Below are positions 11,004 through 46,310 of a DNA stretch of 50,903 bases, piece after piece. The stretch comes from an uncultured Candidatus Saccharibacteria bacterium (GTDB lineage Bacteria > Patescibacteriota > Minisyncoccia > Phycocordibacterales > UBA9973). The position numbers were made by a program, and so were the translations under genes. A model generated the notes under the pieces. It did no database searches. It was not told where the DNA came from and saw nothing but the letters and a program-made list of their open reading frames with translations. Position 1 is the first letter of the stretch; each line of letters starts with the position of its first letter. The DNA is taken from contig CAZFSV010000006.1 of the NCBI GenBank assembly GCA_964522195.1, positions 1,408-52,310 of the forward strand, read 5' to 3'.

Positions 11004-13436
11004 ATGGAAAAAGAATATAATCATTTAGAAATTGAAAAAAAATGGCAAGAGAAATGGGAGCAAGATAGAATCTATAAAACTATAAATAAAATAGAAGACA
11101 AAGAAAATTTTTATCAATTAGTAGAATTTTCTTATCCTTCCGGTAATTTACATACAGGTCATTGGTATGCTTTTTCTGTACCCGATATTTATGCTCGCTA
11201 TAAACGAATGCAGGGATATAATGTTTTTTATCCTATGGGTTTTGATGCTTTTGGATTGCCGGCTGAAAATGCTGCTATTAAGCAAGGAGCTAATCCTAGG
11301 ATTTGGACTTATGAGCAAATGGATAAAATGCGAAAACAACTTCGTTCTATGGGAGCTATGTTTGATTGGGATAGGGAAATAGTTTCTTGTGCTCCAGAAT
11401 ATTATAAATGGACACAATGGATGTTTAACCAATTTTTGAAAAATGATTTAGTTTATCGTGCTAATACAAAAGTTAATTGGTGTCCTAAAGATAAGACCAT
11501 ACTTGCAAATGAACAAGTCGTAGATGGAAAATGTGAAAGATGTGATGGAGAAATAATTCAAAAAGATCAAGATCAATGGATGCTTCGTATTACAAAATAC
11601 GCTGATAGATTGATTGATGATTTGGATTCTTTATCTTGGCCTCATGCAATTAAAGAATCTCAAAAGAATTGGATAGGAAGAAGTAGTGGGAGTGAATTAG
11701 AGTTTAAATTAAAAATTACTTCTAATATTTTGATGTCCTCGGGTCGCTACGCTCAACCAGACGATCAAAATACTAGAAGTAATTTTTCTGAAAATGATTT
11801 AAAAATAAAAGTGTTTACTACTCGTGCAGATACTTTATTTGGGGTGACTTATGTGGTTTTGGCGCCAGAGCATCCTTTAGTAGAAAATCTTTTAATCGAT
11901 GTAGAGAATAGGGAAGAAGCAGAGAATTATATAAAAGAAACAAAGAAAAAACTTGAACTACAAAGACAACAAGAAAAAGAAAAAACTGGAGTAGAATTAA
12001 AAGGAATCAAAGCTTTTAATCCTATTAATAATGAAGAAGTTCCTGTTTGGATTGCTGATTATGTTTTAGCTTCTTATGGAACGGGGGCAGTTATGGCAGT
12101 ACCCGCTCATGATCAAAGAGATAATGAATTTGCCAAAAAATATGCTTTACCGATAAAAGAAGTTGTTTTAGGTAAAATGGATGAATATGGAGTTCTTGTT
12201 AATTCTGGAGAATTTGATGGACTTACTTCTGAAGAAGCAAAAAAGAAAATTACTGAAAAAGCAGGAGGAAAATTAATAAATACTTATCGTCTGCGTGATT
12301 GGGGAATCAGTAGACAGAGATATTGGGGTTGTCCTATTCCCGTGGTTTACGATCCTGAGGGGAAAGTTCACTCTATACCCGATGAGCACCTACCTTGGAT
12401 GTTGCCTGAAGATGTAGATCACACTCCCGATGGAACTGCACCTTTGGCAAGAAGTAAAGAATTATTTGAAAGAACAGAGAAAATTTTTGGCAAAGGATGG
12501 ACTCCTGAAGTTGAAACGATGGATACTTTTGTAGATTCATCTTGGTATTTTTATAGATATTTAGATAATAAAAACGATAAAGAATTTGCAAGTAAAGATT
12601 CTATGGATGCTTGGATGCCTATTGATTTATACATGGGTGGAGCAGAGCATACTACTATGCACTTACTTTATTCTCGTTTTTGGACAAAGGCTTTATTTGA
12701 CTGCGGTTTAGTAAAAGATAATGAAGCTTATAAGGTTCGTTTAAATAGAGGACTTATTTTAGGACCAGATGGCAATAAGATGAGCAAATCAAAAGGTAAT
12801 GTTATTAATCCAGATGAAATAGTAGAGAGATTAGGAGCTGATACTGTGCGTATGTATTTAGCTTTTATGGGACCTTATGGTACCACTGCAAATTTTCCTT
12901 GGGATCCGAATGGAGTAGTAGGAGTTAGGAGATTTCTTGAAAGAGTTTGGAAAAATAAAAATAAAATTAGTAAAGAAAAAACAGCAACAGGTCTTCATAA
13001 AACAATTAAAAAAATTAGAGAAGACATAGAAGAACATAAATACAATACTTGTATTTCTCAAATGATGATTGTGCTTAATGATTGGGAAAAAGAAAAAGAA
13101 ATTAGTATTGAAGATTATAAAACTTTAATTAAATTACTTGCTCCTTTTGCTCCACATATTACCGAAGAATTATGGTTCCTTTTAGGAGAAGAGAGAAGTA
13201 TTCATTTAGAGGATTTTCCAGTTTTTGATGAAGACAAAACAATAGAAGAGGAATTAAATATACCAGTTCAAGTAAATGGTAAGGTTCGAGGCCAGATTAC
13301 AATAAAATTCAATATGGAAGAAAATGAAGTTTCAGAAATTGCTTTAAAACAAGAAAATATAAAAAAATTTATAAATACTCAAGAAATTAAAAAAGTTATT
13401 TATGTTAAAAATAGACTTTTAAACATTGTGATTTAG
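11004..13436 (+). CDS. leuS: leucyl-tRNA synthetase
   Basis: HIGH-type motif (SGNLHTGHWY), KMSKS motif present, the CP1 editing hallmark FTTRADTLFG, and a CxxC Zn cluster. 810 aa. Carries an in-frame palindromic insert at 11711-11787. Confidence 0.95.
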   Translation: MEKEYNHLEIEKKWQEKWEQDRIYKTINKIEDKENFYQLVEFSYPSGNLHTGHWYAFSVPDIYARYKRMQGYNVFYPMGFDAFGLPAENAAIKQGANPRIWTYEQMDKMRKQLRSMGAMFDWDREIVSCAPEYYKWTQWMFNQFLKNDLVYRANTKVNWCPKDKTILANEQVVDGKCERCDGEIIQKDQDQWMLRITKYADRLIDDLDSLSWPHAIKESQKNWIGRSSGSELEFKLKITSNILMSSGRYAQPDDQNTRSNFSENDLKIKVFTTRADTLFGVTYVVLAPEHPLVENLLIDVENREEAENYIKETKKKLELQRQQEKEKTGVELKGIKAFNPINNEEVPVWIADYVLASYGTGAVMAVPAHDQRDNEFAKKYALPIKEVVLGKMDEYGVLVNSGEFDGLTSEEAKKKITEKAGGKLINTYRLRDWGISRQRYWGCPIPVVYDPEGKVHSIPDEHLPWMLPEDVDHTPDGTAPLARSKELFERTEKIFGKGWTPEVETMDTFVDSSWYFYRYLDNKNDKEFASKDSMDAWMPIDLYMGGAEHTTMHLLYSRFWTKALFDCGLVKDNEAYKVRLNRGLILGPDGNKMSKSKGNVINPDEIVERLGADTVRMYLAFMGPYGTTANFPWDPNGVVGVRRFLERVWKNKNKISKEKTATGLHKTIKKIREDIEEHKYNTCISQMMIVLNDWEKEKEISIEDYKTLIKLLAPFAPHITEELWFLLGEERSIHLEDFPVFDEDKTIEEELNIPVQVNGKVRGQITIKFNMEENEVSEIALKQENIKKFINTQEIKKVIYVKNRLLNIVI
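11711..11787. repeat. in-frame palindromic insertion in leuS (AT-rich 24-nt inverted arms, 23/24 match, around a 29-nt GC-rich core)
   Basis: Left arm AAAAATTACTTCTAATATTTTGAT (11711-11734). Right arm ATCAAAATACTAGAAGTAATTTTT (11764-11787). Core GTCCTCGGGTCGCTACGCTCAACCAGACG. Confidence 0.8.
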
Positions 13437-24525: not shown

Positions 24526-24759
24526 ATGAAAGAAGTAAAAATTTATTCAACCCCAACTTGTCATTTTTGCCATATGGCAAAAGATTTCTTTAAAGAAAAC
24601 AATGTAGCTTTCACAGACTACAATGTAGCTGAAGATTCTCAAAAAAGAGAAGAATTAATAGAGAAAAGTGGTCAAATGGGTGTACCTGTTATATTTATTG
24701 GAGAAGATATGGTAATAGGTTTTAATAAACCTAAAATTGTAGAGCTACTAGGAATGTAA
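24526..24759 (+). CDS. glutaredoxin/NrdH-like thiol-disulfide oxidoreductase
   Basis: 77 aa with a CHFC active site after beta-1 (KIYSTPTCHFCHMAKDFF) and GVPVIFIG later in the sequence. A terminator follows. Confidence 0.8.
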   Translation: MKEVKIYSTPTCHFCHMAKDFFKENNVAFTDYNVAEDSQKREELIEKSGQMGVPVIFIGEDMVIGFNKPKIVELLGM

Positions 24760-24762
24760 TTT

Positions 24763-24796
24763 AAAAATCCCCTGAGTATGATCGAAGGGGATTTTT
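24763..24796. terminator. hairpin terminator after the glutaredoxin-like gene
   Basis: 10-bp stem AAAAATCCCC/GGGGATTTTT with a 14-nt loop. Confidence 0.6.
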
Positions 24797-24802
24797 AAAT
24801 TG

Positions 24803-28815: not shown

Positions 28816-29985
28816 CTATTTTAGTTTTAAATTACCTTCGGCTTTTATATTTTTATATATTTTCTTTGGGTTTTCTAGATATTTCATAAAACCAGCCATG
28901 GCAATCATTATAGAATTATCTCCAGTTAGTTTTTGTTTTGGAATCATAATTTTGATGTTGTATTTTTTACCCATCTTAGTTATTTCTTTTTTTATGTTTT
29001 TATTAGCCGAAACTCCTCCAGCTACGATAAGTCCACTTACTTTATATTTTTCTATAGCTTTTTTTGTTTTATGAAGCAAGACTTCAGTAACAGCTTCTTC
29101 AAACTCTAAAGCAATTTTTCTTTTTAAATTCTCGTCAATAACAACTTTATTTTTTTCTAAATCTTGCAGTAGATAAAGTACTGCTGTCTTAAGACCCGAA
29201 AAAGAGAAATTAAAATCTTTTGTATGTATCATGGGTCGGGGTAGTTTTATAGCTTCAGAAAAGTTTTGAATTTTAAAAGCACGCATATCCGCGTGCTCGC
29301 GGATTGCTATGTTCGGCTCGACAGCCTGCGCAATGCTTTTAAAATTCAAAACTTTTCTTCTTTCTTCCGCTAAGCGAGAAACTTCAGGCCCTCCTGGATA
29401 AGGTAATTTCAACATTCGTGCAACTTTATCATAAGCTTCACCAACAGCATCATCAACAGTCTCGCCAATAATTTTATATTTACCCCAAGATTTAATCAAA
29501 ACAAGCTCAGTATGACCTCCAGAAATTAATAAAGAAAGTAGGGGAAATTTAGCTTCTTTTTTATCTAAAGGAATTTTAAAATTCCCTGTATGATTAGCGT
29601 AAACTGAAAAAATATGACCTTCCATATGATTCGCAGGAATTGTGGGTATATTCCATTTTTGGCTTAATTCTTTTGCGAAAACTATTCCAGTCCAAAGTGC
29701 AGGTTCAAGTCCTGGACCTGAAGTTACTATTACTACATCTACAGGCTTTTTGCTTTTTTCTAATTTTGTCTTTTTTAAAACTTTTTTAAGTAGAATCGGT
29801 AAATTCTTAATATGTTCTCTTTTAGCTAGTGCGGGGTAAACTCCTCCATATTCTTTATGGATTTTTACTTGAGAGGCGAGGGTGTTCGCAAGGATTTTAA
29901 AATTTGTATTATTTTTGTCCTTTTTTGCTTCAAGGATACTTATCCCTGTTTCGTCACAGCTTGTTTCTATGGCTAATATTTTCAT
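28816..29985 (-). CDS. tsaD: tRNA N6-adenosine threonylcarbamoyltransferase TsaD
   Basis: ILAIETSCDETGISI, HMEGH, SGGHTEL, DDAVGEAYDKVAR, PYPGGP, FSFSGLKTAV and VAGGVSAN motifs. 389 aa including a ~33-aa in-frame insert (DNA 29258-29357). Confidence 0.92.
   Translation of the reverse strand: MKILAIETSCDETGISILEAKKDKNNTNFKILANTLASQVKIHKEYGGVYPALAKREHIKNLPILLKKVLKKTKLEKSKKPVDVVIVTSGPGLEPALWTGIVFAKELSQKWNIPTIPANHMEGHIFSVYANHTGNFKIPLDKKEAKFPLLSLLISGGHTELVLIKSWGKYKIIGETVDDAVGEAYDKVARMLKLPYPGGPEVSRLAEERRKVLNFKSIAQAVEPNIAIREHADMRAFKIQNFSEAIKLPRPMIHTKDFNFSFSGLKTAVLYLLQDLEKNKVVIDENLKRKIALEFEEAVTEVLLHKTKKAIEKYKVSGLIVAGGVSANKNIKKEITKMGKKYNIKIMIPKQKLTGDNSIMIAMAGFMKYLENPKKIYKNIKAEGNLKLK
29258..29357. repeat. 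in-frame palindromic insertion in tsaD (perfect 23-nt inverted arms around a 54-nt GC-rich core)
   Basis: Left arm GAAAAGTTTTGAATTTTAAAAGC (29258-29280). Right arm GCTTTTAAAATTCAAAACTTTTC (29335-29357). The core contains a nested ATCCGCG/CGCGGAT hairpin. Confidence 0.85.
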
Positions 29986-40714: not shown

Positions 40715-40730
40715 TCTTATTTTTAAAATT

Positions 40731-40758
40731 AAAAAACCTACGTACGTAGGTTTTTTTT
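40731..40758. terminator. strong palindromic terminator at the proposed island boundary
   Basis: AAAAAACCTACG/CGTAGGTTTTTTTT, a perfect palindrome. Confidence 0.75.
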
Positions 40759-40818
40759 ATTTAAGTATTTTGTGAGCCTAATCGAGATGCGACCCAAGGA
40801 TTCCTTACCCTGTAAGGA

Positions 40819-46037: not shown

Positions 46038-46138
46038 AAATTTTTCTTTTGCGTATTAGTTTTAATTCTAGGGTAAGACGCAAAAAGCCTACCACTAGGT
46101 AGAGTCTTTCGACTCATATATCCGTTTCCAGATATAAC

Positions 46139-46186
46139 GCAACGAGCGACCCTAGTGATAGGTTCTTTATGCTCGTTGCGATTTTT
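46139..46186 (+). terminator. terminator-like hairpin closing a structured intergenic segment
   Basis: Perfect 9-bp stem GCAACGAGC/GCTCGTTGC with a nested CCTA/TAGG pair, followed by GATTTTT. Confidence 0.4.
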
Positions 46187-46310
46187 CACCATGCCACCCG
46201 ATTTCTCAAATGGTTTAGGCTACTGCTTTATTTAGTTGTAAATGAATAATAGCATTTTCGACCCTATTATTCAACGGACATTCTATCGCAGAACCTTAAA
46301 ATCACAGAGG

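Follow-up and report, generated by a model that had tools for sequence, protein, structure and literature searches.

What is a perfect palindrome of about a hundred nucleotides doing in frame within the essential gene tsaD, and how did it come to lie there? Patescibacteria have among the smallest and most streamlined of bacterial genomes, and we address this question in a 50,903-nt stretch of DNA from one of them, referred to here as the window. We find that the palindrome in tsaD belongs to a family of ~110-base hairpin repeats that occurs in Patescibacteria (CPR bacteria). The family is apparently new to the literature, our searches of which found no description of it. Every copy is built as a long stem leading to a three-way junction that bears two small hairpins.

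The palindrome in tsaD has 25-nt inverted arms that are 100% complementary (29257–29281 and 29334–29358) and lie 52 nt apart. The perfect inverted arms of the preliminary description are thus upheld, while its 23-nt arms and 54-nt core are replaced by these measured lengths. When the window was shuffled 30 times under a first-order Markov model, perfect inverted repeats with loops of at most 150 nt reached maximum lengths of 12–16 nt; because no shuffle exceeded 16 nt, against the 25 nt observed, a chance origin of the arms is excluded. Apart from tRNA genes, no stretch of the window has a higher GC content than the core (65%, compared with 29.5% for the window as a whole). As originally described, it contains a hairpin of its own, which reads ATCCGCG-AGCA-CGCGGAT on the gene strand (P3), and we find a second small hairpin, GGCT-GTCG-AGCC (P2), beside it (Table 1). 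Folded as RNA, the element has an energy of −51.1 kcal/mol (z = −8.1); folded as DNA, it has one of −38.5 kcal/mol (z = −10.5). In the long stem, P1, the outer 7 nt of the 5′ arm are the native Arg-Lys codons of TsaD, which are present in orthologs with an empty site too, and the outer end of the P1 3′ arm, CTTTTCT, is the reverse complement of these codons.

Table 1. Features of the tsaD element and its host gene, in window coordinates
Feature	Position	Strand	Basis
tsaD coding sequence, 389 aa, host of the element	28816..29985	−	ORF list; Pfam PF00814
P1 5′ arm, gene strand AGAAAAGTTTTGAATTTTAAAAGCA	29334..29358	−	Inverted repeat I1, 25 nt, 100% complementary
Junction J1/2, TTGCGCA, conserved in the family	29327..29333	−	Alignment A2, columns 30–36
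Hairpin P2, GGCT-GTCG-AGCC, 4-bp stem and GNCG loop	29315..29326	−	Pairing in 112 copies
Junction J2/3, GAACATAGCA; family consensus GAGCATAGCA	29305..29314	−	Alignment A2, columns 49–58
Hairpin P3, ATCCGCG-AGCA-CGCGGAT, 7-bp stem and invariant AGCA loop	29287..29304	−	Pairing in 112 copies
Junction J3/1, ATGCG	29282..29286	−	Alignment A2, columns 77–82
P1 3′ arm, TGCTTTTAAAATTCAAAACTTTTCT	29257..29281	−	Inverted repeat, 100% complementary

The element is in frame within the tsaD ORF, and the Pfam TsaD family (PF00814, 4.7e-77) matches the protein as two stretches that flank the insert. The added peptide, previously put at ~33 aa, comprises 34 residues (213–246) that have no counterpart in solved bacterial TsaD structures, to which query residues 1–212 align as chain 1–192 and residues 247–369 as chain 194–309. 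An AlphaFold model of the protein matches E. coli YgjD/TsaD with a target-normalised TM-score of 0.84–0.87 (Foldseek). In this model the insert, whose possible tolerance as a surface loop had been raised, is a low-confidence excursion (pLDDT <50 at 217–243) and the rest adopts the canonical TsaD fold; the insert is accordingly predicted to be a disordered excursion from an intact fold. The peptide SIAQAVEPNIAIR belongs to this insert, and the NFS ending of the insert is encoded by AAC TTT TCT, the outermost part of the right arm. Misassembly does not account for the element, as three DNA runs, each from a separate study, gave contigs that run through it gaplessly; two of these contigs are identical to the window, one of them, from a wastewater population, at 238x depth, and the third differs at 7 bases.

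In species-representative genomes, a search pattern derived from the core had 117 matches, almost all of them labelled Patescibacteria (mostly Paceibacterota, Nomurabacteria or Minisyncoccia), although family copies are not phylogenetically independent and such counts overstate events. The lone named match outside Patescibacteria MAGs lies on one short contig binned as Burkholderiales. Metagenomes yielded at least 120 matches to the core pattern, genomes carry several copies each, with up to 8 or more in one MAG, and a family covariance model recovered further copies in the same loci. Viral contigs contained no copies matching the core pattern, and a link to phages was rejected on this ground. 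The total length of a copy is mostly ~100–130 nt. Some variants are specific to a genome: among the copies listed for JBAQFC01, all five share the P2 form GGCC-GACG-GGCC.

About a third of the copies (43/121) lie inside ORFs of at least 120 aa, and the remainder are intergenic in either orientation. In-gene copies are confined to positions at which the reading frame remains open, in the domain linkers or variable loops of housekeeping proteins. Pfam confirms TsaD (two sites), Fmt, UvrD (two sites), RsmA, PGM/PMM and a class-V aminotransferase as hosts; RsmE was recognised by motif, and fragments add MnmA and a phosphoribosyltransferase. Intergenic copies show no orientation bias relative to their neighbouring genes (33 versus 39; 36 versus 38). 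In-gene copies are mostly in the sense orientation (37 to 6, and 39 to 1 deep in ORFs), and in other hosts the same DNA reads as HCAGRRAEHS in a second sense frame and as CYAQPVGLRNAF in antisense. An exhaustive search with a profile of the insert peptide retrieved 45 representatives at E ≤0.001, mostly tiny ORFs; host proteins are few in this search because 50%-identity clusters hide insert-bearing members. A word-index search with a 41-aa profile returned nine proteins, of which eight are tiny ORFs and one is a short TsaD fragment.

Across the family, the stems of the small hairpins covary, with more than 99% Watson–Crick pairing, and the junction bases are nearly unchanging, an invariance partly forced by the search pattern that collected the copies. 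Over 112 copies, P2 is paired in 99.8% of cells, with both-side changes at two of its four pairs and stem variants that include GGCC/GGCC, GGCG/CGCC and AGCC/GGCT. P3 is paired in 99.6% of cells, with both-side changes at six of seven pairs and 25 different stem sequences among the 112 copies; its pairs are the top mutual-information pairs of the alignment. The covariation score was 0.489, compared with 0.162 in shuffles, and none of 500 shuffles reached the observed value. Within J1/2, entropy is at most 0.22 save at column 34 (alignment A2), with columns 35–36 fixed by the search pattern. The columns of J2/3 are also largely set by that pattern, and the motif recurs in orthologs found independently of it. 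RNAalifold pairs GCA (columns 56–58) with UGY in J3/1. Tertiary or pseudoknot covariation was considered and rejected: no junction or loop pair stood out in mutual information in the family alignment, where the base pairs of P1, P2 and P3 give the strongest signals and the rest share those stem columns as neighbouring or shifted pairs. Only 3 of 1232 pairs in P2 and P3 are G·T, a near-absence that fits DNA-level or templated pairing better than RNA, and mismatches in the long stem are skewed to G·T on the sense strand (122 versus 58).

We then compared TsaD orthologs at the insertion site. Orthologs with an empty site exist (e.g. P0013, P0026, P0066, P0091, P0103, P0110 and P0120), which bears out the original view of the palindrome as an inserted, in-frame element that is not native to TsaD. 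A homologous protein segment, SIAQAxEPSIAIRxxAxM, is indeed kept in many CPR TsaD orthologs, which had been named as grounds for abandoning that view if the segment lacked DNA symmetry; the symmetry, however, is kept alongside it. Because the DNA symmetry is co-conserved, and because the ortholog P0012 reads the same DNA reversed at this site (with similar arms, in frame, giving a different peptide), the segment is the element and not a protein motif.

The tsaD site also shows turnover among close relatives. P0003 (86% nucleotide identity) has a different family, type B, in place of this element, and P0002 (94%) retains a remnant of this element together with type B. A read contig from run X11 carries a matching replacement, in which 74 nt give way to 134 nt, and this one TsaD loop holds at least four related element families. 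The sole empty site that we examined, in P0013, contains a small 6-bp quasi-palindrome of its own and could for that reason be a target or a deletion scar alike. Metagenome contigs searched with a gapped pattern that bridges the two flanks yielded no allele of the window's tsaD in which the site is empty. Among orthologous tsaD copies, the likeness of the cores is 0.64–0.97, compared with 0.62–0.79 for the flanking tsaD DNA, indicating selection on resident copies or gene conversion.

Comparable variation is found at orthologous sites across relatives, which may be filled, empty, or occupied by the reversed element or by a sister family. In one intergenic spacer, two genomes have the element one way, one has it reversed and two are empty. 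Pairs of copies from the same genome have cores that agree at 53/54 and 54/54 positions and arms that are identical for 18–27 nt, beyond which the two copies part into different perfect outer palindromes of 15–16 nt. A subfamily found in fmt, uvrD, rsmA and intergenic DNA is built in the same way, with shared inner arms and individual outer palindromes. Within subfamilies, then, only the inner 15–27 nt of the arms are common, and the ends are specific to the locus. For both uvrD site 2 and rsmA, the empty allele already contains one half of the outer palindrome, the complement of which appears in the filled allele only. There is no sign of a direct target duplication at the palindrome boundary, where the mean direct repeat is 2.05 nt versus 1.68 nt in controls, with no preferred length, and empty intergenic alleles contain no pre-existing palindromic target.

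Our search for an enzyme or autonomous partner of the element found none, and the 25 largest clusters of neighbouring ORFs from the 117 loci include no insertion sequence with matching ends. Genes for RAYT-like Y1 transposases (PF01797, 23 bits, at the Pfam cut-off) occur in 6 of the ~117 loci. These genes are flanked by REP hairpins of their own (e.g. CAAGG...CCTTG) and not by this element, the nearest copy of which lies ~1–5.5 kb away, as estimated for five of them. A RAYT/Y1 transposase was rejected as the cognate enzyme on this present evidence.

The window contains another hairpin, in leuS (11711–11787), which had been proposed as a possible relative of the tsaD element. Such kinship is not borne out: the covariance model scores the leuS hairpin at 26 bits, mostly from the long stem, compared with 107 bits for tsaD, and the leuS core has no match in 121 related loci. 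Aligned LeuS homologs are without its peptide, most having no insert at that position and three having unrelated ones. The junction motif matches at 9 of 11 positions (GAGCGTAGC versus GAGCATAGC), and on this sequence likeness the leuS and tsaD hairpins may be distant kin.

Taken together, we consider it probable that the family consists of selfish, non-autonomous DNA hairpin repeats that multiply in Patescibacteria genomes, much as Rickettsia palindromic elements (RPEs) or MITEs do, and that the insert in TsaD is tolerated as a disordered loop at the protein surface. The conserved junction and the constraint on stem structure alone would be the signature of a folded single strand that is recognised in trans. 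By analogy with HUH-type nucleases, the likeliest form would be a DNA hairpin or cruciform that is bound or nicked by an enzyme encoded elsewhere. New copies would be made by copying, not by classical cut-and-paste, and the flank would be copied as an inverted duplicate, for which fold-back (hairpin-primed) synthesis or template switching at a replication fork would be the simplest route. Inverted duplication of the flank would explain both the perfect outer palindromes specific to each copy and the lack of a direct target duplication. In-gene copies would be survivors, retained only where an insertion falls in the one open frame and at a tolerant surface site, which would explain why two TsaD loops have been hit repeatedly. 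The core can probably flip between its arms, and such flipping would explain the reversed copy in P0012. More tentatively, and as a possibility that we rate well below this general reading, the family may represent a novel type of prokaryotic mobile element that works through the conserved three-way junction at the hairpin tip, read as a folded single strand, and that spreads by hairpin priming or template switching with inverted duplication of the flank and with no transposase of its own. The junction may even be a new nucleic-acid motif that is catalytic or recruits a nuclease.

Copies could instead function as structured RNAs (for example a new self-cleaving ribozyme, a module that binds protein, or a processing site for an RNase such as RNase III) and be kept because they act on the transcripts carrying them, in which case the in-gene copies would mark regulated or processed messages. 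A three-way junction with conserved single-stranded bases and strongly covarying stems would suit this role, as would the sense-strand G·U skew of the stem mismatches, the sense bias of in-gene copies and the higher conservation of orthologous cores than of the host gene. Copies are also present in metatranscriptome contigs, and the RNA contigs of run X6 end at 29254 and restart at 29399, flanking the element. This break, however, occurs at 2–3x depth in a repeat with many copies, which would interrupt assembly in any case, and in assembled contigs it is uninformative. One metatranscriptome contig passes unbroken through a uvrD copy. P2 and P3 are nearly without G·U, intergenic copies face both ways relative to genes, and both orientations of the element occur at the same site. 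Rfam 15, including hammerhead, twister, pistol and hatchet, gave no match at gathering score across the window, and around the element (29150–29460) only chance-level matches appeared up to E = 10. The sense bias is explicable by peptide tolerance, because exactly one frame is open per orientation, as seen in the sequence. We regard an RNA function as unlikely.

A classical MITE would be an insertion sequence shortened by deletion and mobilised by cut-and-paste, with the transposase of the parent insertion sequence recognising its terminal inverted repeats. Such an element would share the small size, the inverted-repeat arms, the many copies and the subfamilies with common inner arms. It is nonetheless improbable here, since conservation lies in the centre and the arm ends differ from locus to locus, no direct target duplication occurs consistently, and the 25 largest neighbouring ORF clusters of the 117 loci include no recurrent transposase save the RAYT-like genes with their own REPs. 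Inversion of the core between perfect 25-nt inverted repeats could also serve as a DNA switch, giving two alternative loop peptides and phase variation, and the similar arms and reversed core of P0012, in frame at the same site, count in its favour. Contigs of seven DNA runs and one RNA run show no strand-changing joints and no mixed orientation, which is weak evidence because contigs drop rare variants, and no invertase gene adjoins the copies; we give the switch a very small chance. We find it hardly credible that the SIAQAxEPSIA... peptide is a module selected for function in TsaD and other enzymes, with the DNA symmetry incidental. The peptide is kept among TsaD orthologs that are just 58–75% identical overall, but this reading is contradicted by the multi-frame and antisense reading in other hosts and by the mostly intergenic location of the copies. 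In addition, the peptide profile matches mainly tiny spurious ORFs, the insert is predicted to be disordered and several orthologs are without it.

If the family is a selfish DNA repeat, streamlined Patescibacteria genomes tolerate a proliferating repeat even within genes such as tsaD, fmt, uvrD and rsmA. Odd insertions in CPR proteins, and tiny 'hypothetical proteins', would then in many cases be translated or mis-called hairpin repeats. For protein evolution, the family would join Rickettsia as a second, independent example of essential enzymes gaining peptide loops from palindromic DNA. The conserved centre, the free yet complementary arms, the individual outer palindromes and the lack of direct duplication do not fit textbook transposition, and these features make a copy-choice or fold-back route of insertion directly testable. 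The covariance model can be used to mark such repeats, and presence or absence at a site to serve as a fine-scale strain marker.

The closest descriptions are those of RPEs, palindromic, gene-less repeats of a small AT-rich genome that often lie in frame in housekeeping genes and encode a fold-compatible peptide (PMC10969869). Both are palindromic repeats of ~100–150 bp scattered in small AT-rich genomes of host-dependent bacteria, and the present family, at ~100–130 nt, likewise has several copies per genome and in-frame copies in unrelated genes. RPEs belong to another phylum and have other sequences, the comparison being one of descriptions. The GC-rich three-way junction at the hairpin tip, the covarying stems and the copy-specific outer palindromes distinguish this family, and to our knowledge such junction and outer-palindrome features have not been reported for RPEs. 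MITEs (Correia/NEMIS, ERIC, RUP and BOX) are small, non-autonomous elements with inverted-repeat arms, subfamilies and occasional in-frame gene fusions (PMC10969869). The family resembles them in each of these respects and in its many copies. MITEs, however, have conserved terminal inverted repeats, direct target duplications and a parent insertion sequence, whereas in this family the ends vary, the centre is conserved, and neither a direct duplication nor a parent element was found.

GC-rich hairpin repeats, such as the GC clusters of yeast and the double-hairpin elements of fungi, have invaded AT-rich, reduced mitochondrial genomes, genes included. Sponge mitochondria also contain repetitive hairpin-forming elements (PMC2800124). 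Like the present family, the mitochondrial elements are GC-rich hairpin repeats in AT-rich reduced genomes, including genes, with no known transposase. They are organellar and much shorter or differently built, and we know of no sequence relation between them and this family. The element always keeps the reading frame open, the assembled contigs of the RNA run contain no joint that skips it, and the uvrD copy is retained in an assembled metatranscriptome contig, features that bear on any comparison with introns and inteins.

Hairpins nicked by HUH enzymes, including geminivirus and circovirus origins, IS200/IS605 ends and integron attC sites, combine an invariant loop or junction with compensatory stem changes and act as single-stranded DNA. 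P3 with its AGCA loop shows a similar pattern of conservation, an analogy of design only; our analysis connected the element with no Rep, relaxase, transposase or integrase. REPs are 20–40 nt long, extragenic and flank their own RAYT gene, whereas 43/121 copies of this family lie in ORFs of at least 120 aa and the copies do not flank RAYT-like genes. In REP/REPIN–RAYT systems, as proposed here for this family, a hairpin repeat is read as a folded single strand by an HUH/Y1 enzyme in trans, and in both the sequence of the stem varies while its structure is kept. By this analogy, REP/REPIN–RAYT systems may be the nearest match to the way in which the element works.

The palindrome within tsaD is a member of a large Patescibacteria family of hairpin repeats, each built from a long stem (P1), a three-way junction and two small hairpins (P2 and P3). 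In the 50,903-nt window (29.5% GC), the arms of the tsaD element form a perfect inverted repeat, the 25 nt of which compare with a maximum of 12–16 nt for perfect inverted repeats (loop ≤150 nt) after Markov shuffling of the window (30 shuffles). The core is the richest stretch of the window apart from tRNA genes, with a GC content of 65%. The preliminary description had reported 23-nt arms around a 54-nt GC-rich core with its own hairpin; the perfect symmetry and the core hold, while the arm length was a slight undercount (25-nt arms enclosing 52 nt) and two small hairpins are present, not one. The element strand folds with −51.1 kcal/mol as RNA (z = −8.1) and −38.5 kcal/mol as DNA (z = −10.5).

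Coordinates and composition of the tsaD and leuS elements, related elements and RAYT-like genes
Feature	Location	Strand	Details
Host gene tsaD	28816–29985	minus	389-aa ORF; PF00814, 4.7e-77; element in frame
Inverted-repeat arms of the tsaD element	29257–29281 and 29334–29358		25 nt each, perfect; 52 nt between
Small hairpin in tsaD element core	29287–29304	minus (gene strand)	ATCCGCG-AGCA-CGCGGAT
Small hairpin in tsaD element core	29315–29326	minus (gene strand)	GGCT-GTCG-AGCC
leuS hairpin	11711–11787, in leuS 11004–13436	plus	24-nt arms, 96% complementary; 29-nt GC-rich core; in frame
LOOT RNA motif (RF03000)	46101–46221	minus	full-length match, 86.7 bits (gathering 46.4)
Short near-perfect palindrome	24758–24801		16-nt arms; adjoins tRNA-Arg
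Short near-perfect palindrome	40723–40764		21-nt arms, loopless
Empty (short) tsaD site	P0013, P0026, P0066, P0091, P0103, P0110, P0120		among 33 aligned homologs
Type B sister family	tsaD site		...CTTGGTAG-GTCGC GACG GCGAC-GGACAGAGAAAA-hairpin, AGCA or AGCT loop
Type C sister family	tsaD site		GGGC GACG GCCC-GAGGACTGAGCA-hairpin
P0052-type sister family	tsaD site		GGCT GACG AGCC-GAGAGGCAGCG-CTCCGCG AGCA CGCGGAG
RAYT-like Y1 genes	L009, L021, L048, L070, L084, L111		e.g. L009 oriented coordinates 522–1187
Copy pair, one genome	L009 / L019		core 53/54; identical outward run 26 nt left, 21 nt right; own outer palindrome each ≥15 nt
Copy pair, one genome	L040 / L047		core 54/54; identical outward run 27 nt left, 18 nt right; own outer palindrome each 16 nt

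The in-frame position in tsaD is confirmed, and the PF00814 match is split in two, with one piece on each side of the insert. The extra residues previously noted correspond to positions 213–246, which are without counterpart in solved TsaD structures, and residues 1–212 and 247–369 align. In the AlphaFold model (mean pLDDT 86; 257 of 389 residues ≥90), the predicted insert falls below 50 at residues 217–243; superposition of the model on E. coli YgjD/TsaD gives a target-normalised TM-score of 0.84–0.87. The insert is not an assembly artefact, a possibility raised when it was first seen, because three DNA runs, each from a different study, have contigs that cover it without a gap; two of these contigs equal the window exactly (one at 238x depth) and the third differs at 7 bases.

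The nearest TsaD homologs are proteins from Patescibacteria/CPR metagenome-assembled genomes. When 33 of these are aligned, the stretch from 'LAExxRK' to 'LPRPM' adopts four states: empty (seven homologs), the window peptide (SIAQAxEPSIAIRxxAxM), variants thereof, and quite different peptides (types B, C and the type of homolog P0052). The core recurs in the DNA of four orthologs, where both small hairpins have changed in a compensatory way (ATTCGCC/GGCGAAT, ATCCCCG/CGGGGAT and AATTTAC/GAAAATT are examples), and in homolog P0012 the core is reversed at this site and translated as TAHIPVLGDCYAQPVGLRNAF. The preliminary description had set against its own reading a protein segment conserved across CPR TsaD orthologs without DNA symmetry. 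A segment is indeed shared, but since its conservation is at the DNA level, with the symmetry preserved and both strands readable, the sequences identify it as a nucleic-acid element and not a protein motif. The other peptides at this site are explained by diverged sister families, which have the long stem, junction and two hairpins in common with the window element. Two fetched tsaD loci (L022 and L029) hold two elements side by side. A second permissive TsaD loop lies near residue 75 (columns 75–92 of the TsaD alignment), where homolog P0011 has a 14-residue insert and the tsaD of locus L102 has a family hairpin copy (L102:5940–6049).

In an alignment of 112 distinct family copies, pairing is 85.5% overall compared with 66.7% in shuffles, reaching 99.8% in P2 and 99.6% in P3, and both sides have changed in 6 of 7 P3 pairs and 18 of 20 long-stem pairs. 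The covariation score of 0.489 (shuffled, 0.162) is matched by none of 500 shuffles and drops to 0.08–0.24 when the 3′ partners are slid by 1–3 columns. RNAalifold independently predicts the same three helices, and the top mutual-information pairs are exactly those of the helices, with no further tertiary pairs indicated. P3 occurs with 25 stem sequences, from AT-only to GC-rich, and with the loop AGCA in all. The search pattern itself dictated many of the junction columns; near-invariant columns outside it are 28–33, 41, 43, 44, 48, 59, 76, 79, 82 and 84, and the same junctions appear in orthologs retrieved via protein, independently of the pattern. G.T pairs make up 3 of 1232 in P2 and P3, and sense-strand mismatches of the long stem comprise 122 G.T and 58 A.C, counts that are inflated by shared ancestry. 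One 187-nt copy (L072:6135–6321) has extra GC-rich hairpins apparently nested in its core, suggesting that elements inserted into one another or that the core gained expansion segments.

The search across related genomes that had been proposed used a degenerate pattern from the unpaired core parts, with the stems left free. It returned 117 matching stretches in a one-genome-per-species collection, at least 120 matches in metagenome contigs and 0 in viral contigs. Named genome records with copies are nearly all Patescibacteria (Nomurabacteria, Paceibacterota, Minisyncoccia and a few Saccharibacteria), and the richest MAGs hold at least eight (JAVHNX01) and at least six loci (JBAQFC01). A copy of typical form lies on an 8-kb 'Burkholderiales bacterium' contig (JAMPXW010000005.1, loci L031 / L121), probably a mis-binned Patescibacteria contig. 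Scanning the fetched loci with the family covariance model, R1, reveals further copies overlooked by the pattern as well as diverged sister families. An insert-peptide profile matches 45 cluster representatives at E ≤0.001 among 1.84 billion proteins, mostly ORFs of 30–70 aa, some named 'hypothetical protein'. These tiny ORFs, like those of proteins P0241–P0248, consist of translated hairpin element and are probably mis-called genes over intergenic copies.

Of 121 distinct copies, 78 lie outside ORFs of at least 120 aa and 43 within them, 37 in sense and 6 in antisense orientation. This ratio is 32 to 4 for ATG-defined ORFs, and 39 to 1 when at least 60 aa are present on each side. Intergenic copies have no preferred orientation: 33 face the same way as the upstream gene and 39 the other way, and for the downstream gene the counts are 36 and 38. 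Pfam-confirmed hosts are TsaD (two different loops), Fmt, UvrD (two sites), RsmA/KsgA, phosphoglucomutase/phosphomannomutase (between domains I and II) and a class-V aminotransferase; RsmE is identified by motif only, and MnmA and a phosphoribosyltransferase from protein fragments. Read directly from sequence, the family consensus has one open frame per orientation, and a second sense frame, the one used in RsmE (HCAGRRAEHS), is open in certain P2 variants. The 719-aa UvrD ORF of locus L041 has a family element at residues 81–113 and, further along, a second insert resembling another family (...SLSPRARGALTLDPS...).

Transcription of host genes includes the element, which stays in the RNA, with DNA contamination of the libraries possible. 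A 407-nt aquifer metatranscriptome contig runs unbroken from uvrD through a family copy and back into uvrD, and other RNA contigs contain intergenic copies. RNA contigs of the window end at 29254 and restart at 29399, a break that is not reliable at 2–3x depth in a multi-copy repeat; no joint skipping the tsaD element was seen in these low-depth RNA-run contigs.

Comparison of close relatives shows turnover at single sites. At 86% nucleotide identity to the window tsaD, P0003 has a complete type B element at the same site, and P0002 (94%) retains the window's left arm and first core part, followed by a complete type B element. A contig of sequencing run X11 has 134 nt in place of 74 window nt, consistent with the 60-nt length difference of P0002. 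One orthologous intergenic spacer carries the element in one orientation in L130 and L139 and in the other in L166; in L183 and L170 it is empty, and the whole palindrome is absent. Empty orthologous sites are also found for uvrD site 2, rsmA and tsaD. Variants are partly genome-specific: all five copies listed for JBAQFC01 have the P2 form GGCC-GACG-GGCC, both copies in JBAZQY01 have a rare P3 variant, and mean similarity is 0.78 within genomes versus 0.73 between them. Nested and decayed copies occur in L072 and, in the protein alignment, P0017. Taken together, the mobile, selfish-DNA reading of the family is well supported; its mechanism of spread we infer from the arms and the conservation pattern.

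Within subfamilies, the inner 15–27 nt of the arms are common to copies in unrelated genes. One such arm, ...GATGTTGTTTTGAAAAGC, pairs with two conserved G.T wobbles and occurs in fmt, uvrD, rsmA and intergenic DNA. Further outward, a stretch of 10–17 nt is locus-specific, yet complementary between left and right, and near-identical copies within one genome each have their own outer palindrome. By rough estimate, a sub-megabase genome would hardly ever contain a perfect AT-rich palindrome this large by chance. In genes with an alignable empty ortholog, the outer palindrome consists of a native half and a new half: at uvrD site 2, GGAGAAAA is in filled and empty alleles and TTTTCTCC in the filled allele only, and in rsmA GCAAAA is native and TTTTGC new. 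The outer 7 nt of the tsaD 5′ arm in the window correspond to the conserved Arg-Lys codons, whose reverse complement closes the 3′ arm. At the palindrome boundary, direct repeats do not rise above background. Insertion, or a fast later step, may therefore copy the flank in inverted orientation. A nascent strand fresh from copying the hairpin could fold back, prime on itself and then return to the original template, and the same process would keep every stem perfectly Watson-Crick.

Hairpins that HUH enzymes read as single strands combine an invariant loop and junction with free stems. Because the family is conserved in this manner, we favor a protein encoded elsewhere that would recognize the element in trans, with enzyme-free copy-choice as the alternative route of spread. 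Among transposase-like families, only a RAYT-like Y1 protein recurs in the neighborhood of copies, at six loci (PF01797, 23 bits, exactly the Pfam cut-off). Each of its genes has short REP hairpins of its own on both sides, unlike the family in sequence (for example ATATCAAGGGCTACCCTTGATAT or AACAAGGTTAAACCTTGTT), and the nearest family copy is ~1–5.5 kb away (estimated for five of the six loci). These genes and their REPs belong to a distinct REP/RAYT system that the genomes carry alongside the family.

The window holds one true copy, in tsaD (107 bits with R1), and the runner-up is the leuS hairpin, whose 26 bits derive mostly from the stem. The likeness of the two inserts noted in the preliminary description extends to their general look, but not to detectable family membership, as the leuS core is absent from all 121 loci. 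Its peptide is absent from the aligned LeuS homologs, three of which have unrelated inserts at the site. A distant relation is possible in view of a brief similarity (GAGCGTAGC) and of the peptide YAQP, which the family also has when read in antisense. One of the three LeuS homologs, P0123, has an insert with the peptide VIPAKAGIQ at this variable site (columns 285–315 of the LeuS alignment), which looks like the translation of another GC-rich hairpin repeat. The window also contains a LOOT RNA motif and two short near-perfect palindromes; these palindromes look like terminators and are unrelated to the family. Overall, the original observation is confirmed and stronger than could be seen at the time, and its interpretation is supported in part.

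As far as literature and Rfam searches show, the family is undescribed: no Rfam family matches the tsaD element, and the full-text literature, largely without subscription journals, yielded no account of an element of this kind, whether for CPR, Patescibacteria or TsaD. MITEs are defined by conserved termini and direct target duplication, and REP/RAYT elements by a RAYT-flanking position and extragenic location, features that the family does not show. Among known phenomena, the Rickettsia palindromic element (RPE) comes closest; it is without coding capacity and inserts in frame in housekeeping genes (PMC10969869). Both properties are common to the two and their size is similar, whereas phylum and architecture differ, and the likeness, which is one of description, supports no claim that the family belongs to the RPEs. 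The family resembles RPEs in behavior, with a distinctive architecture and flank signature.
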